Positions 12,301 through 64,000 of a stretch of 64,000 nt of DNA are shown here, piece after piece. The position numbers and the translations under genes were made by a program. The stretch is from Moniliella sp. 'wahieum' (lineage: Eukaryota). The stretch covers positions 186,001 to 250,000 of the forward strand of contig RSEE01000023.1 of the NCBI GenBank assembly GCA_003971905.1. Direction: 5' to 3'. The first letter of the stretch is position 1, and the number at the start of each line of letters is the position of its first letter. Below the pieces are notes generated by a model. That model ran no database searches and was not told the origin of the DNA. It saw only the letters and a list, made by a program, of their open reading frames with translations.

Positions 12301-12977
12301 GAGGGGGCCGAGGAGCTTAATGATGAGGAAGAAGGGACCGAGGAGCTGATGGATGAAGATCTCGGTGGAGGACGTTGGAATGGGTGAGGTGGTGCTAGTG
12401 ATGGTGCTAGACGATCGGGATGTTGAGGACGATACGCTTGACACAGAGGTTGAAGAGGGGACACTCGTAATTGCCGTCCTCGAAAGGATGCTTCCAGGGG
12501 GAGGACGCTTTGGAAGCTTTCGCTTCTGAAGATTCACGACTGGCGCTGCGGCTCGAGTTGTAAGACGAGCGCGAGGGGATTTACTCCCGACTACGCTTCT
12601 GCTTGCACTCTTGCTAGCGAGACTGGCGCTCCTGCTTGTACTTTTGCTGGCCCGGCTGCACTTCTGCTTGCACTCTTGCTAGCCGGCTGGCGCTCCTGCT
12701 TGCACTCTTGCTGGCCAGGCTGGCACTTTGGGACGGATCCATCTCAACCTCCGCAGCCTTGGGGCCCGCTCCAAGACGTTGAAAAAGTGTGATGGCACGG
12801 GGGACGCGGTAAGACGCGAGAGTAGAGCGGGTGTGGGATGGTGGTGGGGCGGGGCAACAACAACGTTTGTTTTGCCTTCGGCCGGCGTGAACGGGTAGCG
12901 GACGTTGGCAGCGATGGTAGTGGCGAGGGTGGTTAGGGGGAGAAAAGAGAACGCAAGGGAAGATGGAGGTTGAACAT
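9400..12977 (-). CDS. Type I transmembrane mucin-like surface protein (signal peptide, Ser/Pro/Thr stalk, single TM helix, long cytoplasmic tail); Mid2/Wsc-like architecture; frameshifted
   Basis: ATG at 12977 followed by a hydrophobic leader (MFNLHL...LTTLATTIAA after frame repair). Ser/Thr/Pro repeats at ~12480-11140. A frame not shown in the ORF track at ~11115-11020 reads GQIAGIVLGSVFGALALLLILALLAFILRRRKR. Downstream fragments (e.g. RRGGYAPVAAQG) continue to ~9400. The 3' end is uncertain. Confidence 0.65.
11340..12360. repeat. ~1 kb purine-rich (+ strand) coding minisatellite: degenerate 15-bp GAAGAAGAGGGAGAT units and five 30-bp units at 12211-12360
   Basis: Directly visible, e.g. 11630-11740 and 12150-12210 (gaagaagagggagat)n and a 30-bp period ..ccgaggagct..gatgaagaa.. 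On the - strand it encodes SSSPS / SSSLSSSVPS repeats. Confidence 0.95.
12595..12728. repeat. Imperfect ~36-bp tandem repeat (about 3-4 copies) encoding ASKSASRSAS-like units on the - strand
   Basis: ctgcttgcactcttgct(a/g)gc recurs at ~12599, ~12635 (variant), ~12664 and ~12696. Confidence 0.85.
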
Positions 12978-17265: not shown

Positions 17266-17306
17266 CTTGAAGTTGAAGGTTGAAGGTTGAAGCTTCAAGC
17301 TTCAAG
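17266..17306. promoter_or_regulatory. TTGAAG(C/G) heptamer array with inverted centre (TTGAAGCTTCAA) in the divergent GPI17/BST1 promoter
   Basis: cttgaagttgaaggttgaaggttgaagcttcaagcttcaagg; the same motif recurs in other intergenic regions. Confidence 0.5.
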
Positions 17307-17576
17307 GCCCAAGCTAGCCAAACGCTGCCAAACGCTCGCGCTGCTCACGCCTTCCTGGACGCCAGGCGGGGCGTGTTCCACCCCGGCAATGTTGCAACTG
17401 TTCAATTGAAACGCACTCTTCGTGCGATGATCCGATGACGACCAGTGACTATCGATGACAATCCTGAACGTTCAATATTCAATTGAGACCTCCCGCTAAC
17501 AGCAGCGCAACAGCAACACCACAGCAGCAGCCGTGTGGACCCCACCTCCGTCGCCACATCCACCACCGCCTGTCGC

Positions 17577-22855: not shown

Positions 22856-24893
22856 GAGCGGTGAGGCCAGAGGGCGGAGGGCGGGGGAAGGGAGAAGAGG
22901 GTGGTGGCAGAGGGCAAGGGGATCCTTTCGCATGCGCTATAACCGAATCGGACGAGCGTTAGGGATGTCCGATGGGGGCTGGCAAAACAGAGACCAGAGC
23001 GCCGCGGTTGGGGTAAAGAAGACAACCGTGCCCTTTCACGAGCGGTCACCGGTCATCACGCGTCGCGTCACGCCGTCAGCGTTCAGCCGGACCGTCACAC
23101 GTTACACGGATTGTCACGCGCCAAGCCCCGGCTTGGTATGCAGTGACTAGCACGTCCAGTGCCTCCTTCGTTGGACGACGCGTGACGCGGGCGTAACCGC
23201 GCAACACGTAACGCGTAACCCCGACTCGTCATCTCGACGTTGAAGCTTGAAGTTCAACAACACTGATTCCATGCATGCCATAGTAGTAGCGTTGTTCGTA
23301 GCACTCTCCCTCTTCCACTGCGCTTCGGCACCCCCACCTCCCACTTGCTGCTACTCTAGGCCTCCCCCGAGCCAGCAGTCGACAGCACTGGGTGTCTGGC
23401 GGTTCCTTCTAAGTTTTACGTCCTTTCATTCGCTGGTAACGATGGCCAACAAATCCCGGAAGGATCTCAGATCTCATCAATACTACTTGCATCATCAAAA
23501 CGTTGTTTAACCTTCAACAAACGTTCAACGCCAACAACCATATTGGCCTGCCTGCGCACAGACCCCACACAGACGGGGAGGTTTCCGCTTGTTCAAAGCC
23601 GATTGCCGTCAATTGGTTCGATCGTGTCACATACCCAATGCAACGAGGACGTTCAGGCTGAGCCTTAAGCTAAGCTTAGCGCTGTGCTGCTGAGCCTCAG
23701 ACCCTCCCTCAGGCCTCGGCCTCAACGGTCCAGCTGAGCGGCGAAGCACGGAGCGGCAGAGATGCGTCTCGTCTCTTTGGTCGGGGAACGGTTGCCGGTT
23801 ACCGGTTGACCGATGTTGGCCGAGGCAGCAAGATCTGCGTTGGGGCTGCCTGTGTTCGTGATAGTGGGTCGCACGGATGCCACAAGTGTAATAAGCTCCT
23901 ACCATCCTACCTGCCATGTGTACTCGCTGAGTTGTGACATGTGAGTGTGTGAGTGATGCGTTCACAGTGTTGTGAGTTGTGAGTTGCGAGTTGTGAGTTC
24001 TGAGAAGTGAGATCGATGTGACGTAGTGAGAGCTCAGTCTGAGTACTAGTATGAAGCGCTAAGCCTTAGCGCTAAGGCCTAAGGTTTAGGCTAAACTCTA
24101 TTCACATATTCACAGTGCTGGTCCGGGCACGGTCACGCGTCACGCCACGCGTCTCTTGATTATAGTGACTAGTGGAGTCACTACTTCTAGTACTCTAGTA
24201 GTTATATAGTTTAGTTACTAGTTACTAGTTAAGCGACGCGCACACGCACCCATCTAACTCAAGGCTTCAAGCTCGTCAAGCGGCTGACCAAGAATGGTGC
24301 TCAAGCTCTCAAAGAGAGGGGCCTGAGGAGCCCTGCCTGGGGAGGATCATTGAGAGTAGGATGGAGCAATGAAGCTTGGATGAACACGATCAGGCCGAAC
24401 TCCAATGGTCCAGGGCCTCATCCTGTGAGCAATTGGAAGTTGTGCCCACCGGATCGTGGTGCAGCGCGCGAACCAGGCGCGCGCGGGGGGGAGGGGATGA
24501 TGAGGAAAGAAAGAACTGTAGTCTGTAAAGAAAAGAATGGAAGAGTAACTGATATCCCGGAAGAAAAACTAGAAATCCATGATCAACACGAGAACTGAGC
24601 CGTAGCGAGATGGAAAGGGGGGGGGGGAGACGTCGACAGATCCGTGCAGGTGGGTCTGGCGTGGGGGGGGGCATATGCTGGGAGAGGGAGCGGGGGTAAA
24701 ACAGGATGGGGCATGGAGGATGGGGGGGAGGGGGCAGGTTGCAGGTGAGTAGGTAGGCATAAGGGGATAATACATCTGGGAATCCATGGCCAGGAGTCGA
24801 AGTGACATGGTACCCAGAGATCAGGGTACGATGCGAGGCCAACTAGGACGGCATTCACATAAAACAAACAAAAGAGAAAGGAGGTGTGTGCAC

Positions 24894-34175: not shown

Positions 34176-34212
34176 TGAAGCTTGAAGCTTGAAGCTAGCT
34201 TGAAGCTTGAAG
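34176..34212. repeat. (TGAAGCT)n array in the divergent Tea4-like/manC intergenic region
   Basis: tgaagcttgaagcttgaagctagcttgaagcttgaag. Confidence 0.85.
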
Positions 34213-34385
34213 ACGATATATGTGCCGATGTCCATGATCATATTCCAAGTGAAAACGAGTGCTCACTCGGATACGAAGAGCAGTCGATGCCTTATGGTAG
34301 GAGTGAACTGCAACTGTGCCTCGCTGAGCGCTGCCTTAGGCCTTGGCTAACAAAGCCTTTCGCATATAGAACCCGATGCGACGGC

Positions 34386-34467
34386 TAGTGACTTCCAGTG
34401 ACTAGGGTGACAGTGACTATTATAGTGAAAGTGACTATAGTGACTAGTGACTAGTGACGAGTGACTA
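34386..34467. repeat. (AGTGACT)n degenerate heptamer array
   Basis: ..agtgactatagtgactagtgactagtgacgagtgactaa. Confidence 0.85.
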
Positions 34468-40957: not shown

Positions 40958-40993
40958 GATCATCGATCATCGATCATCGATCATCGATCATCG
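40958..40993. repeat. (GATCATC)5 heptamer array
   Basis: gatcatcgatcatcgatcatcgatcatcgatcatcg. Confidence 0.9.
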
Positions 40994-41160
40994 CCCTCGC
41001 TGGAGTGTTTCACCACCTGGTAACCACACGGAGCATCTTTGCGCGTTTACATTTTTTACACGATCATCTCCCTTGAAACGTCGAAGCTCGAGCGCTCGAG
41101 CAGAGGATTACCTTGCAACTCATGCACTCGGGGGCGGGGTCGCACTAACAAACACCATAA

Positions 41161-41190
41161 AGCTCAAGCTTCAAGCTTCAAGCTTCAAGC
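41161..41190. repeat. (CTTCAAG)n array (reverse orientation of the TTGAAGC motif)
   Basis: agctcaagcttcaagcttcaagcttcaagc. Confidence 0.85.
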
Positions 41191-41462: not shown

Positions 41463-44400
41463 CTAGCTACGCAGCAAGGCCTTGGCCTGTACAATTGGTT
41501 GCCAACTTGCGTGTGTTCGCCGCTGCGATGATCACATCCGGGTCAAAGTCCACGTTAAACGAGGTCCGGATGGCCGTCGAGAGAGCCTTGGCTTGAGCCA
41601 CGTTCCAAATGAAGAAGTCGTCCGCATCCGCCTTGGCTGGCGGGCCCTCGGCCGTGCTACTTTCCGCCGCGTATTCTTGTTCCGAAAACTTGACAATCGG
41701 CGCAAGCGCACCATACACTTCGGACTCCGTCTTGGCCGGGTGCACTGAAAGGGAAGAAAGGGAAACATTAGCATCCTTTTCAGGGCATCGCAAGAGGCAT
41801 CAAGACAAGAACTCACCATAGATCTCAATCACGCTCGACTTTGCCAGAACTCCATGCTTGCCATCATGGTGATAGCGCAACTCGTACAATCCGGGGGCCC
41901 AAACGAGCTTATCGCCTTCAAATACGACCGTGCCGTTGTCCGAGCTAGCTGCACCTGGGCGATCAATCAGTTGGTCTCCCTGCCACTGGTCGGGCGCCAC
42001 ACCAACCCACTTGCCTTGACTCGTAATGAGGGTCACTGTATGACCATGGTTCGCCGTCTTCTCAGCCCCCGCTGCTGCCAGGCGGTTGAGAGAGTAGAGA
42101 CCAATCCAGTCCGCTCGGCTGTGGCTCGCTTCAGCCGTCCATGTCGCCTTGATCGGCTCGCCCACATAAAACTTGTTCGCGACGGGCGAAAGAGAGTACC
42201 GAGCCAAGTCCAAGCCCGAAATCTCATCGTCCTTACGCACAATCAGAAGCTTGTCCCGGCGTGCCTGAATCGCAGCCTTGGTATCTGTCACTCCGGTGCT
42301 AACTAGACCGCGGGACCGATGGACGAGTTGCTCCAATGCACCCTGCGCATCGCGATATGCCTCCTCAAAGCTCCCCGTCAGCTCGCGCAAGCGTGGGTTA
42401 GCCATCGTCGCCTTGCGCAGCAAACTTGAACTCCGCTGTTGAATACCAGCCCGCTTGATCTGCCGTGTCACACCCGAGTCTTTGCGCACGGCCGCTTCCC
42501 CATAGAGCTTGCGCATATGCGGTCCTTCGACATAGGAGAGGAACCACCAGTGGGCCAGGTGGCTAAGCACAGCAATGACCAACACGAGTTTGCTCCCGCT
42601 AATCAAGACGCCGCCAAAGAAAGCTGCGCCGCCCATGGACCTCTCGGGGTTGTTGAGGAAGCGGTAGATGCCCGTGTAATACAGTTGGTGGGTAGTCGTC
42701 GACAAAGAAGTCGCCATAAAGCCAGCCAAAGGGCCCGAGGACCTTGTACGAGCTATGTGCCGCCCATACATGAAGGGCGAGCAAGAGAGCACCAAGTGTG
42801 GCGGAGCAAATCGGTGCCAACCGTGTAGTTCGATCCAGACAACGGAATGTAGCAGTTCCAGCACAACACCCCAAAGCTGGCGTATGTCAGGATGAGGGAC
42901 GTGTTGTAGATCACCTTCCAGTTCTGAAACGCTTCCAGGACAGCGTCACGAGGGGTGGTGTAGCTGTAGTGTTTCACATAGTGCCGCACCATCCAGCGGC
43001 TTTGAGACTGCTCATGCAGTACTGCGCCGAGACCAAATGAATGCAAGAGGCGCCAGAAAAGAGCATTGACAAACAGCAATCCCAAACGGGTCCGTGGGCC
43101 CATTGCGGGTAGCACCCACGGCACCACTGCATACACCACCGCGGTCAAGAGTAAAAAGTCCGAGCCGCGGAGGAGGTCAAGATTGTTGAAAATGACCGTG
43201 TCCTTGCGGAAGAGGCGATGGTGCATGTCGTGGAGGGTCATGGTCGTTGAACGCTCGGGTTGCTCGGTGTCTAATGGGGTCTGCTCGTGAATGGTATCAG
43301 TGTCGATCGAAGCACGAGATCCCGTTACCGTGGTGGTATCTGCCTTCTCTTCGTCTGATAAAGCCGTACTTCCGCTTGTTTGACTTGGCGTAGGGGCGTC
43401 CGCCTCCGAGACAAGAGAACTCGAGTGAATATGACGGTAGCTGGAGGCTGGAGAATCGGACGAAGAATTGCTGCCAGCGGGGAACGAAGGCTCGATTCCA
43501 GCAGCAGCCTGGACAGACGCCTGGTTATATAATGCCTTATTGAGGGGATGCGTGCGGCGAGGGGCTTCTTCTCCCCATAGACGCGAGAGATGTGGGGGTT
43601 CTCAAAGTAATTGAGGAAACAGGCTTGACCAAAGTGGGCTGCGAGGGATACGAAGAGAACAGCATAGCTGCCCGACATCAATGACAGGCCATAGTAGCCG
43701 GCATAGCCAATGCTGTACATGGGATCGGGAGCAATTTCGTACACTCCGTCAAAGACCAAGTTTTGAAGCATGAGGAAGAAGCAGTCGCCCCAGTACCATG
43801 CAAAATCGCCCACAATCTTGTGAGCATCAACTTTAACCCAGAGGTTGAAGAGAATGATGACGGTGCCAACAACGTAGCGGGCGAGATGCATGAGCAGGTT
43901 GTGGCCCTCGGGCAAGCGGAAGCATGAGAAAGCAAAGAGACTGTAGGCGACAAAATCGTTAAGCAAGATCACGTCCACCAGTGAACGGAAGAGGAGCCAA
44001 ACGTTGTAATCGAGAGGTACAGCGTTAAAGTCGTAGTCAGCGCCCATCTTGACCTTGAGTTCATGCTTGATCATCTGGGCTGCTTGAGGACGGCGCTTCT
44101 CGTCAAACCATCCCTCGCGTTTGACCGTGTTAACAATCCAAGCCCGCTCTGACTGTTGCTTGAGGACCCAACCCAGACCACCATTATAGGCAACGCCAAA
44201 AGGCAAAGGTGAGCAAAAAGCTTCTGAGCAGTAGACCGTGACACAAAGAGGTAGGTGAGTACCTGCAGGCCCAGCAACCCAACCGTCAGGAGGTCGAGGG
44301 GTGTCTTGGGCTCGCGCGGGTCAAATATAGAAGAGAGGACGTCGGCGGTGCGGGGAACGACAAAAACTGGGGCAAAGACCGTATGTTAGTCCATGTCAGA

Positions 44401-47700: not shown

Positions 47701-48066
47701 CAAGAAGACATACTCGCCCCGAAGTCGTGAGATAGAGATGTGTCCGCAAAATGGAAACAAGCCACTGTTCTTATATATTCCCGCCGATATAGACAACGGA
47801 GATCGATGGGTCTGTGGGGTACACAGAGAAAGGATCTATACTGCATCCATATCATTGACAGAGCTTGTTATTAAGGCTGGCACAGAGACACGCTAAGCCT
47901 AAACCGACCCGTTCATTTTGCGTGAGTTACTTGGCGATTCCCCTGGTCCCCTAACAGTGGTGGCGCTACCGAGATATCAAGACCCTCTGGTGCTCGCCAT
48001 ACCTATACTGGAGTGAATATCGAAAAGGTGCTGGATATCACCTTCTTCTGAACCATATATCTATTG

Positions 48067-48094
48067 TGAAGCTTGAAGCTTGAAGAGCTTGAAG
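48067..48094. repeat. (TGAAGCT)n array
   Basis: tgaagcttgaagcttgaagagcttgaag. Confidence 0.85.
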
Positions 48095-49061
48095 AATGGT
48101 CGTTTAACATTTAGGGTTTAAACGCGGCCATCTTCTATTCGAGGGAGGGGCAAGATGGCGACGGACAGCACACACGCCGATTAATGAGCAAGAGTTGGTA
48201 TGCGACACAGCGTTTCTTTGTCCTTAATTTTAAGCTTCGCAAATGATCCGAGTGCTGCAACGCAACTTCAGGATTGCGTGTGCGATATGTTGCTGGGGCA
48301 AGTATTGGGTGTGCGTTGTGTTGTTGGGACAGACACAAGCCCACACACGCTTGGTGCTGGGTGTTTTGTGTGCCAAAAATGCTATTGCAATTAACAACAA
48401 ACGCCCGGCACCTTGGCTTGGTGCGCGGCCAACAACTGTGGAATGACTTTGGCTCATTTCGTCCGCCTCAGCGGCCCTGCGCCACATGTTTCAGAATGGC
48501 AGGGCGCGTGGGCCTATTGCAAGGACCTATGGTCGCCGTCGGCGCCTGGGATCCGATATCGGACGCACAGCGCCAAGTGTAGCGCCTGGCGCCAGTACTC
48601 AGTACTCCGTATACACGACAGTTCTCACGCCATCACGCCTGCGTCGCGGTCCGACCCAGCACGCCCAGGTCTCCTGCCAGCTCCTGCCCGCCAGATCAGT
48701 CAGATCGCCACACAAGAACGGCGGGTGGGCTTCATTAAAATAGGCTTTTGTATGCGTGTGGGCGCTTGAGCGCTCGAGTGCCGGAGCCAGCGCCCCTGTG
48801 CCAGCCAGCTGCTCTGTCCTGAGGCCTGAGGCAACTAGCAACTAGCAAAAAGGAGCCATACCCAACTAGTCAATGCACATGAGCCACGCCCAGCCGCCCC
48901 CCCTTCCCCTCCCCTGTACGTGAACGTTCTTGGGGGGTGCCGGTGTGTAGTGCGTTTGGCAACAGGACTACATCCCTACACCACCACCACCACCTTCTCC
49001 TGCTCTTCCTTCTTGCCTCTCTTCGTGTTGCCTTGGACCGAGACTGTGGCGTGGTAAGCCA

Positions 49062-50478
49062 ATGGGCTTCTATGCGCTGACTACGATGCGCGTCGTGCCC
49101 GCCGCAGTGCGCGAGTTGGATCCCCACGATGCCCTCCTGGGGTTGCCCCTGCCGCCCCCCCTTGCCCACCGGCGCAGCATCGTGGGCGATACCCATATTC
49201 AACCCCAACCCCCCCGCCCGCACCATCATCACCGCCTCACTACTATCCGGCCACCCCACCACCACCATCACCACCTGTCGGAGCTGCCTCCCCTGTCGGC
49301 GGAGGAGCAGGCAGATGAGCATGCTCTGTCCCGTGTTCGCGCACGCATTCCCATGGCAGATCGCCACATCCAGCGCCTCGTTGACGCTGCCGCCGACTGG
49401 GCGTTCGAACACCCCTCGGTCGTAGCCCCTCCTCCAGATTTTGAACGCCTGGTATTGCACAAGCTCGATGCCCACCTTCCACTTGATGATGGGACGCACT
49501 ATGCCCTACGCCTTTCCTTTCGCACTCCCTCCCTGTCCCGAATAACCTCGCCTGGACGACGCAGTGCCAGAACAGCTTCTCCAGCCGACTCAGAGTCCTT
49601 ACAGCTATCTCCACGCGTATCTTGTTCTTCCTCACTCTCTTCGTCGTCATCTGGGCACGCCCCCTGGGGGCTTACCGCCCACATATCGGTCGCACCCTAT
49701 ATGGGCAACACCCCGCCTTTGGTCCGACTGGACTGGGTACCTTCACGCCGGTTCCCAAGTCATCCGGTTGCCAATGATATCCCAGCAGCGTTTGGTGTGA
49801 TCCACAAACATCAGCACGGAACGGTACGAGGCCGCGCAAGACCGGGTTCAAGCCAACTTGACCCAGCACTTTGTGCGCAATCCTCAGCGGATCTCCTGGC
49901 ACCTGTCTCAGCACCGTTACAGCGACCGTTTTCAGAAAGCGCGCCAAGGCGCTCGTCATCGTAGTGCCACTACGACGAGCGCCTGGCCACCATCTGCTAG
50001 CTCGGCCACCAGCTCCAACACAGAGCAAGTTGTGGGCGCAGCGGCGGATTCCGCTTCTAGTCGCCGCACCAGGGGTATGTCTCTCTCCTCAGGTGGGCCG
50101 AAGGGTCCGTACTCAGCTTCTCCGGACGAGGTGGAGCACCGTGCTCAAGAGGGGGATGCTCAAGGGTACGTTTGTGTTCGATGCACTTCTCTGGTCTCAG
50201 GATGCGATGGGCCATACCCGTCTGTTGGAGTCGGGCATTGCCAACTTGATCCTCGAGGACACCATTTTGCCCGAAGACAAACTTGATCGATTTATCACGC
50301 CAATTGTCAAGACACGGGATGGGCCGTTGCCGGCCTCCTGCGCGCCGAGTTGCTTGCTCGTGGCATCATTTCCGAAGGCGATGTGCGTGTGCAAGACCTT
50401 GTTCAACAGCCGGGGCGGTGGCGGATCTATTTGTGTAATGCGGTGCGGGGTGTGTTTGAGGTGGAATTGGCTACTTGA
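49062..50478 (+). CDS. PLP-dependent class IV aminotransferase-like protein, aminodeoxychorismate lyase (Abz2)-like
   Basis: DRHIQRLVDAA; HKTSARERYEAA (after frame repair); FDALLW..LLESGIANL; FITP; ELLARGIISEGDVRVQDL; IYLCNAVRGVFEVEL. Confidence 0.75.
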
Positions 50479-50711
50479 TTGTCTATTGCACCTGTCCCCT
50501 GGCTTTTGCCAGAGGGACTTTCCTTCTCTCTTGACGCGACACGGTGCATCGTGTATCATAATATTTTGATCGTTTTGATGACTCTACGTTGTAGAACGAT
50601 GCGTTGGTCGCGTAGGAGAACATCATCAGGACAAATAAAGGCATAACACGGGGGGCGAGATAATAGACAGGTATTGAAAGAAGAGGGACAGGCTGAATAG
50701 GGGTGAAGCAA

Positions 50712-52731
50712 TCAATATTCTCCCGAGACCGTAGAGGCATCATCGCGAGTGCTGCTGGCCTCGGACGAGGCCATGGCGGTCGACTCTTCGGTCGCTTCGG
50801 TTACCCGCCCCAAACTGTATGCTCGGGACCGAGGACGAGGCTGGTTTGAACCCCATTCGGGTACCTGGACAGCGGTCGAATGCGCTTGGGCCGACCTTTC
50901 CGCTTGCCAGGGCTGGGCCAAGAGAGTTTCAGGGTAATCTTCGTCCTGGGCTTCAGACTCGGTCAGGTCGTCTTCATCCTGCACTTCAAGTTGGCTCGAG
51001 GACATTTCACTTGTCCTGGTCACTGTTTCCCCATCGCTACTCGTCACCTCTTCCTCAGGTGGAGGAGACGGCGGCCGAACATGTGCGCGCAAACCTGTGG
51101 ACGGGGACGTCTTGCTGGTACGGGATTCACTTCGGCTGCTTCCCCCCGTCTCAATACTTGAGCTGAATCGACCTTGGCTTGAGCCAGTGCTTCTCATCAC
51201 CGAGTCGGACGAGAAGATGCACCTTCTTGGGTTATGGCCTTGAGCGTGTTGGATGACCACAGCGATACAAGCGCCCACAGGAAAAGTGCCACATTCAACT
51301 CTAGTCCCATAAATAGGGAGGTAAATACCAAAAAGGACAAGATGGGGTGGTAGTACAACAACCACCTGTCATAAAATGAAACGGAGGTAAGCATGTAACC
51401 CAGAGGAGAGACAAATGGAGGCGTGTACGTACCGAAGACCCGTAATGTGAGCGTCAAACCGGAGCACAGCACTTTGCGTTTGTAGTTCCCCACGAGACTG
51501 GCCCGAAGTGCCCAGCAACCCATCGGAGGAAGGCTGGAGATTGATTTGGATTGATTGGCGGGTGGAATCAAAGAGGTACGCGTCCGGCACCCCAGTCAGT
51601 AAGCCAGACGTGACCCGTAGCGAAGTAGGTGTTGTCCATTGAGACCGCTCTTTGCCTACATCACGGTGGCTCACAGTACCCGGGTCGAGAAATCCGAGGG
51701 GCCCATGCGAGGGTTGCAGCACCTTCCTTCGTAACAGGGGCACCGATATAATTTGTGTCGGGATGGACCACATTAAAGCTGTCACAGGCGAGGAACCTTG
51801 GGTACCGGAGCCACCACCGGCCAACCAAGTTAGCAGACCTGGCATTGAAGGCTGGTTCATGACCCGAGATAGGCTGGCCAAAGCCCTAACGGGAGCAGGT
51901 TCTTGCAAAATGATAGACTGAATGGGTTCACCCGTTAGCTGTTAATATACACATACGGAAAAGTACGTACTGGACGCGAAGCCCGCCAAACCGTAGACCC
52001 ATTTGCGTTGTACAGCTCAAGTGTGGTCATAAAGTTACCCAGACCGACATTGGAAGCAGTGACTGGGACGATGAGGTCAAGAGTCACGTCATAGGCTTGG
52101 TCGTCAAGGAAAAAGGCATGTTGACCATCGGGAAGTCATCGCTGTCTACGAATCGGCTGTGTTGTGATGTAATTCCCGGAACAAAGTGGAGATGAGCAAA
52201 CGGCGCCCTCCCCTCGCTTGACGAGCATGCCGTTAGTAGAAGCAGGCGACCAGCAGGCAAGATCACGTACCCGTATTGGAGCCATACCACCTTCTTGGAT
52301 CCCGCGTGAGGAGCCCAGACGCTTACAAAACCAACGTAGGCCAGGATGGCCATGAATAGGGCGGCCACATACAGGGGCCAAAACAAAAAGGCGGAGCACG
52401 AAACGATGCGTGCGGCGCGAGGTGATCATCCCGACAAAAGCGGCCCAGACGAACGCAAGCGGGGCCACAACCGCGGTTTGGAACACAATTCCAGGCCACA
52501 TTCGAACGGGGGGGACCGAAGCGTAGAGCGTTGCACCAGTCTGGATTGCCTCCAGTGCCCTAGCCTCAACTTCGGATGCCAACTGTGAGTAACGATCATC
52601 GCGTGCCGGCACTTGCGGTGCTCTAGGCGGCCGGACTCCTGCGGCCTCCCCGGGGGGTTGGAGGCGGGAGGTGCTTCCCCATTCGGGGGTGTGGGCTCTG
52701 GCGCCACGCCTGGGCGAGAGCGATGGGACAT
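50712..52731 (-). CDS. SEI1: Seipin (lipid droplet biogenesis factor, BSCL2/Fld1 family)
   Basis: TM1 ..MAILAYVGF..VWLQYG; DQAYDVTLDLIVP..NVGLGNFMTTLEL; SAVLRFDAHITGLR|WLLYYHPILSFLVFTSLF (TM2); acidic C-tail; several introns. Confidence 0.88.
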
Positions 52732-53609
52732 GGCGCGAGTGCGTGTGTCAGTGCGTGGGGGGCGGGGGCAAGTGGCGGTGGTGGTGGGCGGGGCAAGCGT
52801 GTGTGAATGGTGTGCATGTGAATGGGCAACAAGCATGAATCTGAGATCTTGGAGCTCTCCGCAACCCCCAGGCGCCGGCCATCCGGTCTCCTTTTTCAAT
52901 GTTGTTATTGTTACTTGCTCACAAGGAGGCCACCGGCCCACGGCCTGGCTTGGTTGCGGTAGGGTCACCACAGGTCGCCACCGATCGCCCATCATTGCAT
53001 CGTACACCCCTACATCAACCACATCCCCACGCAGTGGCCTCTCCTTTCTTTTTCAGAGAAGCCAGCAGCAGCAGAAAGAACCCATTTCTGCCACAATTCG
53101 GCGGCTATGCTCGTGTGACTCTGCCCGGTGTCTGCTCTTCCGCCATGGGTGTCCTACGAACTCACGCACACCTCCCCCATTTCGCGCCTCAAGCAGGAAG
53201 CAGAGGGCAGGTCTGCCTGATCTACTAGATTCCATCGCTCCATGTTACAACAAATGATGTACATGATTGAATGGGTACTGGGACCGTCTGCAGAAGGTCT
53301 GCGCAGCCGACCCACTTCAGGATAATAGACCTGTCGCTAAAGGGAAGAGAGCAAACAGACTACCTGAACGGATTCATTGTCGACAACGCCGAATTCGCCA
53401 ACAAACTCGCCAAGAGCAGTTTCGTTCGCGACATTAGCACCCACCCGAGGTTCTACGCGCAACTTGCAACCCTGTTCGGTCTGGTCGGCCATTCCCATCT
53501 CCACAGCAACTGGGGACTCGATTCTCAAGGTAGTCGCGCGTTTTGGATCTCTTGGTTGTACCCTTTTTGGTACCTTGCAACAAGTGGACCTTCTTTCATG
53601 AGGCAGAGA

Positions 53610-53993
53610 CTAACCCCTTCCATGGAGTTTGTCCGACCAACGCTCTGAGGTCCACTTCTTTTTACAGATGCGACTGGGACAGAGGAAGGCAAAGGGGGGT
53701 GAGGTTAGGAGTGGACGGCTACAAACGGAGAATGGGAAGAGCGCATACTAGTCTTCAAAGAAAATCATGCAGGCACTGCGATCACCTGGGTTGTATTCGA
53801 GGCACGCCTTGGACGCCCGCGCGGCTAGTTCGCATGGGTCGGAGCTGGTGAACTTGCCGGCAAAGACTTCCCGGTAGTCGAGGGGGGTCTGGCGCAGCTC
53901 GCGCGACCTTGGATCCGTGCTGAGATCAGCATGAGGCCTTCCGCGCGGAACGGGGATGGGGATGGGAGGCGCTTTGGACGGCGATTCGGTCAT
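53610..53993 (-). CDS. COX23: Twin CX9C mitochondrial IMS protein Cox23 (cytochrome c oxidase copper assembly)
   Basis: MTESPSK..DPCELAARASKACLEYNPGDRSACMIFFEDY|RICKKKW; intron ~53673-53748 (gtatgc..ctaac..cag on the - strand). Confidence 0.88.
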
Positions 53994-54138
53994 GGCGGTG
54001 GCGGTGGATGCCGATGGGAGGGAGGGCCCAAGCGCCGGTAGGCTTCTGATTACGGCTTCCGCATTATGTGCGTTGCGCCGCAGCCAGACGCTGGCGGCTG
54101 GGATTCGGTGCAAGTGTTGGAGCGGCCGGGGCGGCTGG

Positions 54139-54175
54139 GCTTGAAGCTTGAAGCTTGAAGCTTGAAGCGTTGAAA
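54139..54175. promoter_or_regulatory. (CTTGAAG)4 array in the ~290-bp divergent COX23/PPR promoter
   Basis: gcttgaagcttgaagcttgaagcttgaagcgttgaaaa. Confidence 0.5.
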
Positions 54176-54282
54176 ATGAAATGAAACGTGAACGATCACA
54201 CCGTCCTTTAATTTTTGCAAGCAAGAATTCTTCGCAGTACCCCCCCACCGCCGTTGCTACCACGAGTGGCGTCGACGAGAAG

Positions 54283-57200
54283 ATGCTGGGCATTGCTCTC
54301 CGTGCTGCCCGAAGTCGGCGCCTCGCAGTGGCTCCTGCTGCAGTTCGCCCACAGGGAATTGCCGCGTTCCATGCTTCGGCTGCGCTGGCCGAGAAGGCCC
54401 GCCTCTCCCGCCGCGGCTTCACCATCCCGGCCGCAGCAGCAGCCTCAGCTCAGCCGCGCTAAAATCACACCCGATCTCAACCTGCGCGTCCCCCCGTCCA
54501 AGAGAGAGAAGCGCGAGCGTGCCAGTCTCTCGGCACTGCGCGAGCACTACTCAATCGGCCTCGGAAAGCTGTTGGCCCCCGTTCTCGACTCGACCACTAC
54601 GCAAGGCGAGCGGCAGCGGGCTATGTTCCACGCAGCTTCCTTTTTACCAACTCGACCCCTCGTGTGGTCAAATTGTCCGACCCTGCGCTGTGGAACCAGA
54701 TGCTTACTGCACTGGTGGCTGTCGGAGAGCGGCGGCACCCGATGAAACTCTTTGCCGTCATGAAGCGTAACGGCATCTACCCCGACATGGCCACCTTCAC
54801 TTCTGTTTTTCGGTCCATGCGCCAGGAACTGCTACGCATCCGGCGCGCCAGCGCTCCTAGCAACCCAGAAAATGAAGATAACCTTCCGGTTCCTTCCCAC
54901 TCTGCTCCCAACTGGGAAAAGACATTGGATCAGCGAGGCCCCGATGCCCAGCAGTGGATGCCTTCGTCAATGATCATCCAGCACCAGTACTTTGTCGCCG
55001 CCTTGGAAAAGTTTCGCATCGCTGTGCTGGATTTTTATCGCATGTCTCGCGGAGAGACAGTCGCCTCGACGGGACTACCCTCACCAGTGCATTATGTGAA
55101 CCAGCGTCGCAGTACCGGAAACACAATGCTATGTTCAATGCCCCTCGGTCTCAACTGCAATATACCTACACTGATGACCCTTCCGATGCAGCCTATGAGG
55201 CTGCGGCTTCCCGCGTCTCGCGTCAATCCCACGATCGCTCCCGTGCCATGGCAAGGAACAAGACGTCCTCCCTTGGCCGGAGAGAAGCCGAGGGGCCCAA
55301 CTTTCTTCCTGGCAGAGGTCAGGACCGTGCTCTCCCTCTCCCAAGAATGGTCATCTCGTTTCTGTGAACTCAGACGAGACCCCGGATGATACCGAGCTGG
55401 CGGCGATGGACCCGGAATTCGAGGAGTACTCGGAAGAAATGGCGGCGGCCCAGCGTAGGTTGAACCGCAAAAAGGACGATCCAAGCACGCTCCCTGCCAC
55501 ATCGGTTCAAGCCCTGGTTGAGCGGCACCACAGCGAGCTGGACGAGGAGAGCCGTGGACATTTGACGCCATGGCAACGCATGTACTTGACCAAACGAAAA
55601 GCCTTGCTCCGCGCTGCGCACAATGGGACGAGTTGGCGACCTTACGCTTGGCCATCGGACTGGGATCGATGCTCGGGCGACCCAATCAAGCCTGGGCAAT
55701 GTACAGCAACATTTCCCTTCCCGGTGCTCGACGCGGACTTCCATGGCCTAGTGGTCTCATCTTTTACACTGTCCTGCGTCACTTGACTCCTGCCCCAAAC
55801 GAGGCGCGTGACCTTGCTCGAGCTGAACGCGCGGATCTTGCCGCCAAAGAGAAGAACCAAGGTCTGCGTCCGGACGAAATCATCTCCAACTTTGATCCCT
55901 ACGCTGCCCTGGGGCCCAATGCGCTGGACAAGAGCTTGACGGCCCACGATGCGGCGAGGGTCACTCTCGAAATGTGACGGGGGGATCGGGAGCCGGGCTA
56001 ACGCCTACGGGCCGACCGTTTGAGGCCGACTCGAGCGATGGGAAAGATGCTGCTGCAGTGGCGGCCAAAGCTTCGCGCTGTGGTGGAGGACTGGCTGACC
56101 GTCCTTTACAAAACGGCTCGCACGGTGGATCCACCCGAAAGTTCTCAATCAGTTTGGATGGACGCCCATGCTTTGAACCAAGTGGTGCATACTTTGACTC
56201 TGGTACGTTTCCCCTCCTCCTTTCTGATCCATCACGAGCTAACCTATTCTACATGCAGATGAATGACGAAAAGTCGGCCACTCTCGCGCTGCGCTTAGTG
56301 GCGGGCATGTTCAAGGTGTACGGCAACCTTCCTGTGCCTGTAAAGAAGAACCACAGCCAGCCACCAAGCCAGACCCAGTCTCTGTTTCAGAGCCCCCCTG
56401 TTCGAGAGGGGACCTGGGATGCGCTCGCGGCAGCCGGTTTGGTCGAGCCCCCTCGTTTGAGATGGATCAAGAGGAGCGTCTTTCCCCGCGCAGCAGTCAG
56501 GAAGAAAAAGCGGACAACCCTTGGCTCACACCAACGGATATGGCGAACAACGCAAGGCGGACCTGATGACCGAGGAGAGTGACTTCCCTGATGAGGTGGT
56601 GCGGGACCAAGACGCCAAGAAGTCGATCTTTGCCATGACAAGTGGCATGGAGCAACCGCCTTCACCGGCACAGAAGAGTCGTCACTTCCATATGATATGC
56701 CCGACCCAGATGAGGATAAGCCGTGGAAAAAGGGGCCGCGAAGGTACCAAAAGGGGTTCAAGAAGGGTGGGAAGCCCCGCTCTTTGGACCCATTGAAGCG
56801 GCGCGGCTACGTGCCCGAGGGCCAGGAGCTTGATCGCTTCCTTACGGGACCTCTCTTTGCTGAAAAGGGGGATACGTTACCTGTGTACACGCGGCGGAGT
56901 GAGTTACGGAGGAGCTGCGGAAACCCCAAACAAAGCTATGCTTCACCAGTTGCACACCAACATTATGGTCTGCAGCCACATTGTGGGTCGACCGGAGTTG
57001 TACTCCTGGTTGGCTGAACACATGGGTGCCGCCGCTCCCAAGACACCGGAAGTGGATCTGCATCGATGACGCGCGGTATGTCGTCGGCACGGAGAAGGAA
57101 GGTGGCGGCGAAGCTGCACAAATCCCCTTCGGTCGGCCGCCTACAATTCTGCCGTTCGACATGCGCCATCACCCTTTGGACGGACACGGCATCTGCGCAC

Positions 57201-57535
57201 CCCTCCTGCTCGCGATGGTCAATTGGTTGCCCCGGCTGGAACGAGTCGGGCGGGGAAAAGTCTCGGAACCGGCACAGGACCTTGGCCAGGCCCAGAGGGG
57301 TAAACTCCAGGGACGCCCTCTCGGCAAAGGCAGGCTGGGTCACACAAGTGGGGAGGACGAGCTCAAGTCGGAATTTGCTCGGTTCAGTCAAACCCAGGAG
57401 GGAGAACCAGAGGTATCGCCCGAGGACACGGCCTGGTCGACGCAACGCACCTGGGGTGTTGACTCTTCTTCGCAGTCTTCGCGAAACTCGTTCCCTGGCC
57501 CAGCCAAGTTTGCCCCGTCCAGGCGTCGTTCTTGA
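54283..57535 (+). CDS. Mitochondrial pentatricopeptide-repeat-containing protein; heavily frameshifted
   Basis: Presequence MLGIALRAARSRRLA..AAFHASAA; PPR motif LWNQMLTALVAVGERRHPMKLFAVMKRNGIYPDMATFTSVFRSM; further helical repeat-like segments downstream. Confidence 0.7.
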
Positions 57536-57862
57536 TCTGGACTGGAGTACCTGCCTGCCACCACTCGTGTGTCTTCTCATGTACGCCACTCATTGCACTT
57601 TTGGCATCCCAAAGACGATGGTCTCTTCACTATTCATCTGCACCCACTACGGTTTAGTTTTAAATGGTGGCGGAGAGGACGATGCAGCCAGTTAACAAAT
57701 GAAGCAAGACAGTAGAAGGTAGAGGGCCAAGGTAGATGACATGGGGGCTGCACTTCATCAGGAACGATGGGCTAGGCGCCGAGAAAGCGACAATAAGATG
57801 CGCCCATCAAGTGTCATTCGACAAGGACGAGGGGGGCATGGAAGGTGACAGATCTTGACCTT

Positions 57863-58342
57863 TTAGTTGGAGCAGTCGCATCCCTGGCCCGTGGGGCAGT
57901 CACCAGGGATGGTCGCCATGGCCGAGTTCGTAGTGCAATCGCAGCCCTGGCCGGTAGGGCAGTCACCAGGTACGAAGGAAGGCCGAGAGAAGGAGGCAAT
58001 GCCACGCGCATACAGCGCCGACGAAACAGGGGCCTTGACACTGGGACGAGAGGCAAACAGCCCCGTCTGGCGACCAAAGGAAAGACCGACCGTTGGAGCA
58101 GCCGCAGCCCGAACCCGTGGGGCAGTCGCCCGGCACGGTCGACGGCCGTGCCGAGTTGCTCGAAGAGCAATCACAGCCCTGGCCCGTGGGGCAGTCGCCC
58201 GCCTTGGCGAAAGCGCGTGCAGAGGCACTAAAGGTGCGCACCGTGGTCATTGCCATGGTACGGGATGTGCAGGAGCAGCCGCTGCCAGTGGGGCACTCGG
58301 TGAGGCAGTGCGGAGCGCAGGTCGGAGCGTGGCAAGCATCAT
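57863..58342 (-). CDS. Small Cys-rich repeat protein, five CPTGxGCxC units (metallothionein-like), with a presequence-like N-terminus
   Basis: Repaired reading: MMLATLRPALRTA-LTECPTGSGCSC-TSRTMAMTTVRTFSASARAFAKA-GDCPTGQGCDC-SSSNSARPSTVP-GDCPTGSGCGC-SN..KAPVSSALYARGIASFSRPSFVP-GDCPTGQGCDC-TTNSAMATIP-GDCPTGQGCDC-SN*. It needs frame changes near 58303 and near 58090 (the latter may be a ~50-nt gtcggt..cccag intron plus an indel). Confidence 0.75.
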
Positions 58343-59237
58343 GATGTTGGCGTGGGTGAAGCAGGAAAGTAGCGGAGTGGTGGGTTGGGGTTGTAGTGTG
58401 GTGGGAGAAAGCGAGACTTGGGAGGCGAAGCGCAGAAAAGGGGAGAAATACGGGTGGCGACACTTGGTGGCCCGCCGGGGTCCAAGATCCAATCGATGGT
58501 GTGCCGCTGATATCAGATGTCGATGTCAGCGATGCTGAAGATACGATCACACTGCCCCCGTGCCAGCGTAAAATGAAATTGCATGGGACAAGCAATAGTT
58601 GCCGATGGTGTGATGCCGACTTGGTTTTTTTCCAGGTGCCGGCCCAGCCACCCCGCCAACCAAAATCCTACGGTCCAGGCCCTGCGGCCGCGAGCGCGAA
58701 CGCTAACGTGTGAACGCCGGGAGCAAAGAGCCGGCTGACAATAGAAGCCCGTTGGCCACCGCAACCCAATCACCGGCCGACGGTCTTACTCTGAACAAGG
58801 AGGGAAGCGGGGGAGTATGCAGCTAGTTCGCCACGCCGGGCCCAGGTCACACAGATTTGTGACTCTTTTATGTCGAAAAAAGCTGTAAAACGATATGCCT
58901 CGATGGATTGTGTGTGTTTGTGATTGTCACCCACCATATCAGGGGAAAGAAGAACACAGTCGTCGGGATGGGACAAATAGAGTCAAAAGTGAATGCAGCT
59001 GAAGAAGAGATCTTGTGTCCATCTCAAGGGGAAAAGTATACAACAGGAATAAAAAAGGAACGACAAGGCGGGAAAGATATCAAGCTCACCAAACCTTGAT
59101 ATGACGGCATGGCGCCTACCTCCACGCGAAAGGCGGTGTGCGCGCGGTACGAATGATAGTGGAAAAATGCAGCGCGAGACCAGGTAATACCAGCAGCGAA
59201 GAGACTCTTGACAGAGAGACCTCTAGCCCCCCCCCGC

Positions 59238-60420
59238 TTATTGTCGAAAGACATGTATGACACCGTTAAGCCAAGGCTTAGCTTGGGGACTCAATGTGGG
59301 ACTGAGGGCAAACCAATCGCTCTCTGAAGAGAGAGCGCCTGAACGCGGAGTGGACCGGCCCGAAACAAGTTCAGCCTCATCCGCAGACTGTAGGGCCTCT
59401 GATGCGGGCAAGTTCAATGCTGTGGGGGACTGGGTGGGGTCATGTCGCTCCATGCAACCGAATCCGCCATGCCGACGGAGGGGGACACATTTTGGGAAGG
59501 AGTACTCAAATGGCGGGATGCATGATCATACCCGTCATCCGAGGAGTTCACCGTCGCTTCGCTGCGGCTTTGAGTCAGGATTGGGTGCTGAGCACCAGCT
59601 CCCTCCAAGGGTGCAGCAGACACCAAGCTGGCGTCTGAGATAACCGATTCGGAGCCCAGAAAGGTTACCGCGTTGTCCGACGGAGACAGGATCGGATCCG
59701 TCAATGAGTGGCGAGGGGACGAACCCGACTCCGCAGCAGCCACAATGGGCTCCTCCGCCCCGGCACTGGCCGAAAATTCTTGATCAACAGCATCTAGTTC
59801 CGCATGCATAGCAGACGTCCAAGCGTCAGCGCCATTGCCATCGCCTGTACCGTTCCCATGGCGGCGACTTGGTGCAGTTCCCTGAAGCAAATTGACGCCC
59901 GAAGCATGAGCAGTCGTGCGCGAGGCCATAATAGTTGTGGCTCCTTCAGCCGGGGACAGGTCGGACGCAGGAATGATAAACGGATTGCGGGGAAGAGGCG
60001 GGGGTGGAGGTCCGCGAACATGAGGTGGGAGAGGAGGAGGGGAGGACCACGATCCCACAAAGCATTCGGAGAAGAGGGCAAGGGAGGCGACCCGTGAGGT
60101 TTCATTGGCAGCGGTGGGGGAGCAGGTTCGTCCTTGTCATGTTCCGAGTCTGTGTCGTCGGCGTCAAATAGGGTGCGTCCAGCGTCCCCATAGACGTCCG
60201 TGGGGACATCCCATGGCTGGGGATGGGGTGGAGGAGGGGGCCGGCGCTGGCGCATTTCGTATCCCGCGGAAACACCAGATTCGTAGGCCATCTGCAGCGC
60301 TCGTTCGCGGGCGCGGCGTTCGCGCTCAGGGCGAAGGATAAAGATGTCCACGGCGATCGCAGCTGCTGCGCCACCGGCCACACCAGCGAGGATGGCGAGG
60401 GAGATGGGGACAGGAAGCAT
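59238..60420 (-). CDS. Uncharacterised protein with N-terminal membrane anchor and disordered Pro/Ser-rich body
   Basis: MLPVPISLAILAGVAGGAAAAIAVDIFILRPERERRARE.., continued by ORFs 59414-60058 and 59238-59453. Confidence 0.6.
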
Positions 60421-60903
60421 CCGGTTGAAAGGAGCGGGAGGAGGGCCGGGGAGGTGGGGGGGAGATGAAGGGGCTGTGAAGAGGCGGGCTGAGTGGACAG
60501 TGGCAAATGGGGGTGGCTGGGCCACCGAGTTATTACCACTTTTTACGCTGCTGCGGAGCCTGAGCGCACAGCCGGAGTCCGCAGAGGCTGAGTACTTGCG
60601 TCGCCAATCGATAACTGATCATCGATCATGGATCTCGATAACAAGCTCTTTCAACTTTCAAGCCGCAAGCCAGAGCAGCCAGGAGGCTCCCCGGCATCGC
60701 AGCACTGTACCGCATGCACTTTGCCCCCTGCATCCGCGCCTCCCAGCAGCGCATGGTACTCGACGTGACTAGCGCTGAGGTAAGCGGGCGGTCACATGAT
60801 GTGATGCATGCGCCCCCCGTCCCGACCCCCCCAGCGGCACGCGTCGTGTCCACGCCAAGCATCCCCAGCGCGTCGGCACAGACCCACGCCTCCCCCCCCG
60901 CCG

Positions 60904-62177
60904 ATGGACGTGCCGCTACATCTCGCGCCCGGCGTGGCTGCACGCGTACGCGCTGCCGCCGAGAAGCAGGCCGCCACCCGCTTTGCCCGTGCCTCTGCCG
61001 CCGCCACACCCCCAGCCGCCACGGTGGTCAAAGACGAGCCTGCCTCGCCCCCCGCCTCGGCCCCCGCCGACACGACAGCCGCCGCCGATGCCACCGCGAA
61101 CATCCTTGCCCGCGAGGCAGCCAGGCCTGAGCGACCATCTGATCTGGACGACCAATCCCTCGTCTGTCTCCCGCGCGAGGTGCGAGAACTAAATGACCTG
61201 GAAGAGGCTCAGGTGACAAGGTGCGTACCGTGTCCCGTCCGCCTTGGCTCTTACTTTTCTCTTGCTGTCTCCCTTATACTCACCCGCTCTGTGTCGGGCA
61301 GGACTATGCCCAAATTCAATCCGAAATCCAAGCCGCCACCTCCTGGCTCCCGGCCTCCGGGCCAGAACGCGACCTAGTCCTGGCCTTGCTCGAGGCGGCC
61401 GAGGCGGAAGCGACGGTGGAGCAGCTGAACCAACGCGCTACCCAAGCCGGTGATCCTGAACCAACCTCTACCAAGGACGACCTGAAAGGAACGGCGATTG
61501 GAGGTGGTTGGGGCACGGCAGGTGCGCGCCATGTTCTGGCCCTGGACAGGCTGGGCAACGTGGTGCAGTCCTTGCGCGATGCGTCGGCAGAGCTAACGCA
61601 GCAAGTCAAGGTCGCTGAGCAACGCTTGAGTCGCGCCCAAGAACTGCATGTTGGACTAACCCAAGTAGCTGAAGGGCTGCAACAACGGCAGACTTTCTTG
61701 GCCCGCAAGCAAGCTCCACCTCTGGACGCTAAAGCGCAACGAGCGTATGTATCAAATTCCCACTACTACTTTTCTTCCTTGGGGGACCATGGCTGACTCG
61801 GTTTTCCCTCTGCACAGGAGGCTCAAGAAACTCATTGCGTCCGCCGAGGAGGAGAATGGAATGTTGGTTCAAGGCGTGATGACGGTGACCAAGGTCATGT
61901 TTGCTAAAAATGAAGCACGTTTACGGGTACAACTGCAAACGTTGCTGGAGGTACGTCGGGTCTGTGGATTTACGTCTGGGGTTAGTGTACTGACACCTAG
62001 CTAGTTCCTGATGAACTTGGCTTTTGAGCGTCCCACCGATCCTTACCTCACAGTGGGAGGGACTCGACAAGTCGAAGAGCATTTCCCCAAACCCTTAGTT
62101 CTTTCTTGCTCCGCGCCGGCATCGCTGTCCCTCATCCTCGCGATGCGCGTCGCATTCGTCTTGCTAGATTTGTCTAG
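60904..62177 (+). CDS. CENPK: Inner kinetochore CCAN subunit CENP-K (Sim4/Mcm22)-like
   Basis: Coiled-coil middle; C-terminus LMNLAFERPTDPYL....FLLRAGIAVPHPRDARRIRL matches the CENP-K DPY..LLRxGIAxxHPxDxxRIRL motif; introns near 61221-61281, 61745-61818 and 61951-62005. Confidence 0.8.
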
Positions 62178-62313
62178 TTTCATTCAGATACTAATCGATC
62201 GTATTGGAATCTGAGCCGGCTGGGCTAGACAAGGAGGGGGCGGCAGTGCCCTGGAATGTGAAGCAGAAAGATATGCATAGTGGGCAAGTTCATCTCAAGC
62301 CCATGGGCTGGGC

Positions 62314-64000
62314 TCATCCGGTGGCCACACTTGATGGTATCGGTGCAGGCACAGTCGGGGTAGGTTGCGTAGGTTGCTCATCGATTGGGGCATCTAGATC
62401 AACCAATGAGGCATCGCCAGCAATGCCAGTCCCTGATCTGGGGATCGAACGTGTCGGAACCGAAGAAGGGGCGGTTGCCGCCTCGGTTGCGGAGGCCGTC
62501 TGTTCAGCTTGCTTTGGGGCGCTGCTCTGCCTCGTCCGCCACCTTGGTTGCGGCTGCAGCAAACTCTTCTTTTTGAGCCTCTTGCTCGGCTGTGATTTCG
62601 GCCGAGCCATAGCGCGAACTAAGAGGCACAGAGGGAACCACATTCTGCTTGAGTCCCAAGGCCGCTGGGGGCTAAATCCAGTGTTGGGACGCGATGGAGA
62701 AGCGGTCGCCATAGGGCGAGGCGGTGTGGCGGTGGACGTAGGATGCCGTAGCAGAAGGTCGAGCGGACGCTGTTGGCGTGGGATGGGCCCTGGGGCTTGG
62801 GTGGGACGAGGAGGGGCGGCAGTGGCGGTTTGGGATTGGTCGTGGTGCCTCAGATCAGCGGCAAAGGCTGCCGAAACAGTGCGGGCCACATCGGCCCCAA
62901 AGCATAGTACCCATCATTCTCTCCGGGCGAAAACATACCCCTGTGCGCCGAAATCTCGTCTGTCGCGCGGGTCGTGACAGCCGGACAAAGGCATGATCCA
63001 GCGTGGTGTTGGCGGGCGGGAGAATGACAAACGTGCGTGACTCTTGGTCTTGGGACGAAGACGTAGGGGGGATCAGGGTATACCAGCAGCGGAAAAACAC
63101 ATTGTGGGTGCGTACCAGGCGTTCAGTTGCCTCATTCGCTCGGCATGCCCCGCAGAATCCCACAATGTTCCTACAAATGCCATGTGCTCCGCCACCCAGG
63201 TATAGCTCTCCTCCAACGTCTGGGGTCGCGCACTCCAAGCGCCAGCGGCCAAGCCAAACCCGGCAACCGCCACCGCCGCTGCACCAGCTGCAGCCCACAA
63301 ATAGCCTCCTCCGGTGGAGGGAGAAGCTACTCCACGAGAACTGCTAGAGCTTCCCCAACCAAACGCATCCCCAATGGCGGAGCTGACATCCCGTGCCGTT
63401 GACACATACTGGTTGGCTGTGTTGAAGGTGGAACCGATTGCGTTGCGAAAGACGTGTGGGTGAACGCCAAAATAAGGGGTATCAAACGCAAGTACTGCAA
63501 GGACACGGGGCCAAAGGTCGGGTAGAGAGTGGGTAGGAAGAGCGGATGCAGCAGCATCTTCGAGCAGCATACGAGCAGCATCCGTGATCACCAATCCGCC
63601 CATGGAGTGGCCGCAGAGGATGATGCGCACCGAGCCTTTTCCGCCTCCCCCGGGATGGGACTCGCGCCGGAGAACCAAGCGAGTCAGCCATTCGGAAAAC
63701 GCCTGCACCGCATCCGCCAGCTGTCCTCTGGTGTCGTACGTGGGGTAGACGACACTCTCAACACGGGACAGGTGGGGATAGGTAGCCCGGAGAACAGACT
63801 CGATCCGTGTAGGGAAGGGCCCAAAGGTACGCTCCGCACTGCCGCGAAACCCATGAACAAAGACAATCAGAAGTTCGACCTTGTTTCCAGATTGCTTCAC
63901 CCCTTCACCTCCTGCAGCGGCAGCGGCAGAGGCTGCTTGTGCTGCTTCGGGAGCGGCAAAGTCAAACTTCTCTTGCGCGTCTTCAAATTCAACGTCACTG
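62314..64000 (-). CDS. DUF676-type alpha/beta hydrolase (putative lipase), 5' end beyond the window
   Basis: LLIVFVHGFRGS; ILCGHSMGGLV (GxSxG); VLAVLAFDTPYFGVHPHVF; EHMAFVGTLWD; Pro-rich C-terminal tail. Confidence 0.85.

Follow-up and report, generated by a model that had tools for sequence, protein, structure and literature searches.

Among the closest described counterparts of the gene reported here are the modular metallothioneins of fungi. In the accessible part of PMC4755600, CnMT1, CnMT2, and TmMT are built from tandem Cys boxes with C-x-C, Pro and Gly between the Cys residues, and spacers, all of which recur in the protein described below. TmMT likewise includes segments of 6 and of 3 Cys, and the assumption for its 6-Cys boxes is that they bind 4 Cu(I) (PMC4755600, in part). 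The short Cu metallothioneins of Neurospora and Agaricus and the heptaCys metallothioneins share with our protein an internal duplication and a similar cassette size (34 to 36 residues), and the available portions of the two sources describe no targeting sequence for them (PMC4755600, PMC12508003).

With respect to mitochondria, the available text of PMC9813906 reports thioneins in the cytosol and the intermembrane space, the latter being reached by yeast Cup1 through an unknown route, while the copper pool of the fungal matrix is attributed to a non-protein ligand whose identity is unknown. When Crs5 is artificially directed to the matrix of yeast, this pool is depleted, and respiration was inhibited in copper-limited cells (PMC9813906, same portion), indicating that thionein chemistry can work in the matrix and that a constitutive matrix Cu-thionein would be costly and would need regulation. 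The mitochondrial processing peptidase MPP, for its part, cuts internally at sites with Arg at −2 and an aromatic residue at +1 within presequence-like stretches; Arg5,6, Atp25, and Rsm22-Cox11 combine an N-terminal presequence with an internal stretch of this kind (PMC8734313, as far as accessible). A full-text literature search, mostly covering sources outside subscription journals and judged by titles and the openings of abstracts, brought up neither a natural metallothionein with a presequence nor a precursor of repeat peptides that is cut by MPP, and a lead on small proteins of mitochondrial appearance with recurrent His/Cys motifs yielded nothing relevant by title in the full-text literature.

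Here, we analyzed a 64,000-nt window of the Moniliella sp. 'wahieum' genome (GCA_003971905.1, RSEE01000023.1:186,001-250,000, forward strand) and describe an orphan gene that is real and of unusual design. The best reading of its product, which we put forward tentatively from sequence features, is a matrix-targeted, thionein-like metal-thiolate buffer.

Five cysteine modules and their arrangement

The minus strand between 57863 and 58342 carries five C-P-T-G-x-G-C-x-C modules with 15 Cys in the encoded protein, as the first-pass annotation had claimed; the module pattern has five matches in the window, while the maximum in 100 dinucleotide shuffles was zero. Across the 69.5-Mb assembly, the module DNA pattern gave 10 matches, five at this locus and five on contig C8, and its reversed control gave none. 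The modules, all on the minus strand, lie at 58269-58295 (module 1), 58167-58193 (module 2), 58098-58124 (module 3), 57935-57961 (module 4), and 57872-57898 (module 5), each with Cys spacings of 5 and then 1 (C-x5-C-x-C). Compared with the reference copy, their DNA is 74 to 81% identical and 7 of 9 residues are kept.

In order, the protein consists of 13 to 15 presequence-like residues, module 1, a 24-residue linker, modules 2 and 3, a 44-residue linker, and modules 4 and 5, followed by the stop. The start codons and the first presequence-like segment (58304-58342, minus strand; 13 codons with 2 Arg and no acidic residue) are identical between the two genomic copies, and module 1 falls inside the presequence-like region. 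Long linker 1 (58197-58268, minus strand) is amphipathic and contains in-frame Met codons at 58256 and 58250 and two R-x-F motifs (58227-58238 and 58206-58217). It is followed on the same strand by cassette A (modules 2 and 3, 58092-58199; 36 residues, 6 Cys, no aromatic residue) and by long linker 2 (57965-58091), which is rich in Arg, Ser, and Ala, begins with an R-x-F motif directly after cassette A (58080-58088) as a candidate internal MPP site, and has an amphipathic stretch near 57989-58009. Cassette B (modules 4 and 5, 57866-57967, minus strand; 34 residues, 6 Cys) is a duplicate of cassette A, and the TAA stop codon (57863-57865, minus strand) stands two residues past module 5.

The modules arose by tandem duplication: the DNA of the two cassettes is 76% identical across 110 nt, and the modules are also each preceded by ten mutually related residues. 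Each cassette has 34 to 36 residues, with 6 Cys (17 to 18%), 3 acidic residues, and 0 or 1 aromatic residue, and acidic residues throughout the protein are confined to the modules or their flanks. The whole protein has 9.4% Cys and 8 aromatic residues (7 Phe and 1 Tyr in the C8 copy), with neither a transmembrane stretch nor a signal-peptide core. A single-sequence AlphaFold model gave no confident fold (pLDDT 46.7), and the precursor is probably unstructured.

Reading frame reconstructed from two copies

Window positions 48038 to 64000 are collinear with positions 556000 to 572023 of contig C8, with 95.8% identity over 16 kb, so that a second haplotype is the simplest explanation of the C8 region. 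Three different frames are occupied by the ATG (58342) and the modules in the window copy; the C8 copy reads through from module 1 to the stop without a break, with 158 codons from stop to stop. At the first break (58296-58304, minus strand), different bases are missing in each copy, 1 nt near 58304 in the window and 2 nt near 58298 in C8, and the longer reading mends the frame. The second break (58075-58079, minus strand) consists of two 1-nt gaps and is confined to the window copy, since the C8 copy is in frame there. When the longer reading was retained at each of the 4 gaps between the copies, a single intronless gene of 483 nt emerged, with an open frame of 160 residues; the frame repair proposed in the first-pass annotation is thereby borne out, while its size of about 150 residues is too small.

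Over the 16 kb, 142 gaps separate the copies, including 115 of 1 to 2 nt, and 34 of the gaps lie inside the 3.3-kb PPR gene. Given how frequent such short gaps are in coding genes, frameshift-based findings in this assembly need a second-copy check. As a control, the longer-reading rule was applied in seven neighboring region/strand tests: the longest open frame was extended in three (668 aa for the PPR gene versus 308 and 317; 511 versus 337 and 395; 407 versus 274 and 391), unchanged in one, and shortened in three, with introns or noncoding DNA among these last. The breaks appear to be deletion errors in a long-read assembly that was left unpolished, and the first probably reflects bases lost during sequencing in both copies. 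Introns were rejected as the cause of the frameshifts: none of 4 donor-acceptor pairs had a branch site, and a 67-nt candidate would have cost half of module 4; the intron of the nearby COX23-like gene, by contrast, is ordinary.

The breaks of the two copies lie within about 7 nt of each other, and the first internal ATG is flanked by A at −3 and G at +4, as would suit a shorter gene in which the first frameshift is genuine and translation starts at an internal Met (58256 or 58250), leaving module 1 as a relic. However, the two breaks are not alike, the longer reading mends the frame exactly, clustered gaps occur at other places too, and in module 1 all 7 conserved residues persist alongside synonymous changes, which makes such a gene improbable. 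Even then, a presequence-like segment would follow the internal Met codons at the start of the product and both cassettes would be retained, so the targeting reading survives doubt about the first frameshift.

Coding strand and sequence constraint

Module codons vary mainly at synonymous positions, as had been noted in the first-pass annotation: codon pairs between modules show 26 synonymous versus 13 non-synonymous differences on the minus strand and 23 versus 22 in the open antisense frame. With three neighboring genes as the reference, the codon-usage score of the minus-strand frame was the best of six (0.12, versus −0.03 for the antisense frame), and 5 of its 144 codons end in A. A C/T-rich leader (58343-58450, minus strand; 75% pyrimidine, 8 G in 108 nt) precedes the start codon, and the 400 nt upstream contain a single ATG, at 58584. 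The two copies of the open reading frame differ by 7 substitutions in 478 nt (1.5%, versus 2.5% overall), 3 of them synonymous and 4 non-synonymous (in 3 codons), with none at Cys; these are too few for showing constraint and give no signal of strong constraint.

It is very improbable that the locus is instead an antisense-strand gene, a secreted repeat precursor (Kex2-processed or RiPP-like), or a noncoding repeat. The antisense frame is indeed open over the repeats, for 168 to 223 codons, but its start coincides with the sense stop codon, and both the codon usage and the higher synonymous share speak for the minus-strand frame. Kex2-processed repeat precursors carry a signal peptide and dibasic sites; in the present protein, a hydrophobic signal core is absent (maximum 9-residue hydropathy, 1.12), as are KR, RR, KK, and RK.

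Presequence-like segments and candidate MPP sites

Presequence likeness was assessed with a composition score built from the N-termini of the citrate synthase, ISU1, OSCP, and PPR genes of the same genome, which we take to be mitochondrial from family knowledge. This is a crude in-house test, trained on 7 sequences of 4 families with ends set by the analyst. When their own gene family was left out, the seven presequences scored 0.25 to 0.50, and three control N-termini scored −0.04 to −0.39. The N-terminus of the Cys-module protein, which is Arg/Ala/Leu/Thr-rich and acid-free as described in the first-pass annotation, scored 0.57, above all seven presequences and matched by roughly 0.2% of background windows, such shares being rough with a background of about 1,275 residues in overlapping windows. 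Two internal spacers had likewise been said to read like presequence ends. Linker 1 did so (0.17, roughly the top 1.8% of background windows), while linker 2 was borderline (−0.08, roughly the top 6.9%); the two short linkers fell at about 29% and 47%. Amphipathic stretches were found in the N-terminus and in both long linkers.

Two Arg-x-Phe motifs stand at the end of linker 1 and a third immediately follows cassette A, and the motif R-x-[FLY]-[SA], chosen post hoc, was observed 3 times versus 0.49 expected (P ∼0.01). These motifs are not independent, because the Arg preceding several modules belongs to the repeated unit. Of the MPP-type motifs previously ascribed to the spacers, the internal R-x-F motifs are present, while the part of linker 2 that had been quoted has no aromatic residue two positions after Arg. 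The R-x-F at 58080-58088 nevertheless places an Arg −2/aromatic +1 motif at the putative polyprotein junction, comparable to those of Arg5,6, Atp25, and Rsm22-Cox11, which differ in being fusions of two different folded proteins (PMC8734313, as far as accessible) rather than two copies of a short Cys peptide. Taken on these features, the protein is likely to be imported into mitochondria; a cut in linker 2 would be about half as probable as import, having roughly an even chance if import does take place. The twin CX3C and twin CX9C patterns of MIA40 substrates are absent, with Cys spacings of 5 and 1 in every module.

A cytosolic modular thionein-like protein, in which the Arg/Ser/Ala-rich linkers merely resemble presequences, would agree with the Cys boxes and spacers of described long fungal thioneins (PMC4755600, in part), with the linker ends being homologous parts of the repeat, and with the interruption of the supposed presequence by module 1. 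We regard it as unlikely, considering that the first 13 residues outscore all seven presequences of this genome, that linker 1 combines two R-x-F motifs with an amphipathic stretch, and that acidic residues occur only within or beside the modules.

Comparison with fungal thioneins and rival functions

The first-pass annotation had likened the protein to the design of the long Cryptococcus thioneins, a likeness weakened by its Cys content and by the lack of the 7-Cys box of Cryptococcus and Tremella thioneins. Among the features expected of fungal metallothioneins, five C-x-C among small residues are present, but Cys makes up 9.4% versus 25% in the TmMT candidate, and there are 8 aromatic residues versus none (PMC4755600, in part), the cassettes alone having 0 and 1. 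The 7-Cys box of Neurospora, Cryptococcus, Tremella, and Agaricomycete metallothioneins is likewise missing, the modules having 3 Cys and the cassettes 6, although C-x5-C-x-C is a sub-pattern of the Neurospora-type box (PMC4755600, in part). The boxes of CnMT1, CnMT2, and TmMT mostly hold 7 Cys, in contrast to the 3-Cys modules found here, and TmMT has 10 exons, whereas our gene has no intron; aromatic and Arg-rich linkers and a presequence-like start further set our protein apart from these three as presented in the accessible part of PMC4755600. No sequence similarity to CnMT1, CnMT2, or TmMT was detected. Also, the heptaCys motif of Agaricomycetes (PMC12508003, in part) is absent from our protein, with its 6 Cys per cassette. 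Among the Pfam metallothionein models, the best match was PF02068 (plant PEC metallothionein; E 0.23, 12.3 bits versus a cut-off of 31.8). Four metal-response motifs were not enriched in the 400 nt upstream, and the available portion of PMC13343922 gives no Cuf1 site sequence. Plausibly, the protein works like a modular fungal thionein yet belongs to no described thionein family. Its likeness to Cup1 and matrix Crs5 would be that of a thionein acting within mitochondria to reduce labile copper; Cup1 resides in the intermembrane space and matrix Crs5 is artificial (PMC9813906, same portion), whereas a native matrix presequence is proposed here.

The modules also share their C-x5-C-x-C spacing with the last three Cys of CGFCX5CXC in the CRR-B of HapX and Yap5 (PMC4232046, in part), and in HapX such regions are binders of [2Fe-2S] (PMC12390756, in part). 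Given this, an Fe-S-binding peptide is a real rival in the matrix: a mitochondrial [2Fe-2S]-type store or sensor whose modules act in pairs or with a preceding Asp as fourth ligand. The presequence-like features, moreover, point to the compartment that makes Fe-S clusters. Compared with CRR-B as covered by the available parts of these two sources, however, our modules have three Cys rather than four and lack CGFC, and there is no bZIP domain; no Fe-S family was matched in Pfam or PDB, and we consider this function rather unlikely.

Less likely still is a mitochondrial thiol-redox or structural peptide, whose Cys residues would cycle between thiol and disulfide or form cross-links and would bind no metal in vivo. 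Three-Cys modules with C-x-C spacing are better suited to metal-thiolate binding than to disulfides, and the twin-CX3C and twin-CX9C patterns are absent, even though the number of Cys per cassette is even (6), Pro-Thr-Gly-x-Gly would favor a turn, and the single-sequence model shows no confident fold.

Searches for relatives

No homolog was found at E ≤ 0.01 among 328 candidates of 79 to 252 aa, nor at E ≤ 10 among 38 shorter candidates. Longer proteins were covered solely by a search of 1.84 billion representatives, whose only match (P0003) was rejected, its Cys being out of register with the modules. The C8 open frame as a query against the Atlas gave no usable match; in PDB, there was one unrelated match (E 0.92), no Pfam family passed for the protein, and Rfam gave one chance match (E 0.64). 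The first-pass annotation had proposed a pattern search for relatives, and a two-module DNA pattern indeed hit 20 loci in metagenome contigs, none of which resembles the gene: 19 are simple Gly/Pro/Cys runs, mostly off-frame, and the last (L021) has no frame bearing modules. Within the genome, more than one module was found in the two copies only, and the single-module matches inspected (10 + 4 loci) were all unrelated. A comparable search with the COX23-like exon returned 1 match among 2 candidates, and as this conserved exon likewise found just one relative, the blanks are weak evidence. The gene is so far unique to this fungus.

Genomic neighborhood and assembly

The Cys-module gene is convergent with a PPR gene on the plus strand (approximately 54270-57600; PPR_2, E 4.2e−07) that has a presequence-like N-terminus. 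Beyond it, at 53751-53993 on the minus strand, a twin-CX9C gene resembling COX23/CHCHD7 has its first coding exon, so that a COX23-like gene does lie nearby, as the first-pass annotation had reported for COX23; it starts at 53993, 3.9 kb away, with the PPR gene in between. Its COX23 label is a weak one, based on the twin-CX9C pattern and on its single relative (P0004, 73%), which itself matched CHCH (E 0.043) and CHCHD7 (E 0.04) weakly. The proximity itself is no evidence and adds little. The COX23-like and PPR genes stand head to head about 0.3 kb apart (53751-54300) and probably share a promoter.

Both of these genes are, like the Cys-module locus, present in two copies in the genome. For ISU1 there are five matches and for OSCP three copies (DNA identity, ∼78 to 96%), more than the two of the Cys-module locus, and more than two sets of genes may be present in the assembly, possibly from a hybrid, a mixture, or old duplications. 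Elsewhere in the window, Pfam identified a phospholipid methyltransferase, a seipin, and a DUF676 hydrolase (43325-44320, 50700-53100, and 63073-63999). A purine-rich 1-kb tandem array at 11358-12359 (periods of 15, 30, and 58 to 60) probably encodes Glu-rich repeats, and there are many short arrays with a 7-bp period (17267-17307, 23969-24004, 34176-34467, 40958-41190, and 54139-54174).

Proposed function and implications

Under the matrix-buffer reading, a lineage-restricted, intronless nuclear gene would encode a 160-residue precursor whose N-terminal region of about 45 residues, module 1 included, would serve as a matrix presequence and be removed by MPP at an R-x-F site. Each 6-Cys cassette would then enclose soft metals in a thiolate cluster, with Cu(I) the most likely ion and Zn or Cd the alternatives, and buffer them in the matrix. 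An additional MPP cut in linker 2 might free two peptides of about 35 residues with 6 Cys each, but processing into such mini-thioneins seems doubtful to us. We judge similarly the full version of this scheme, namely a native matrix-targeted poly-thionein whose mini-thioneins, once cut out by MPP, would serve the matrix as copper buffers or as carriers of Fe-S clusters.

The gene is known from one fungus and one noisy assembly, which limits the generality of these considerations. If the reading is true, the locus would represent a gene-encoded matrix metal buffer and would offer a first-hand genetic handle on the buffering of copper, zinc, or Fe-S in the matrix, and internal cutting by MPP would be extended from two-enzyme fusions to repeated peptides.
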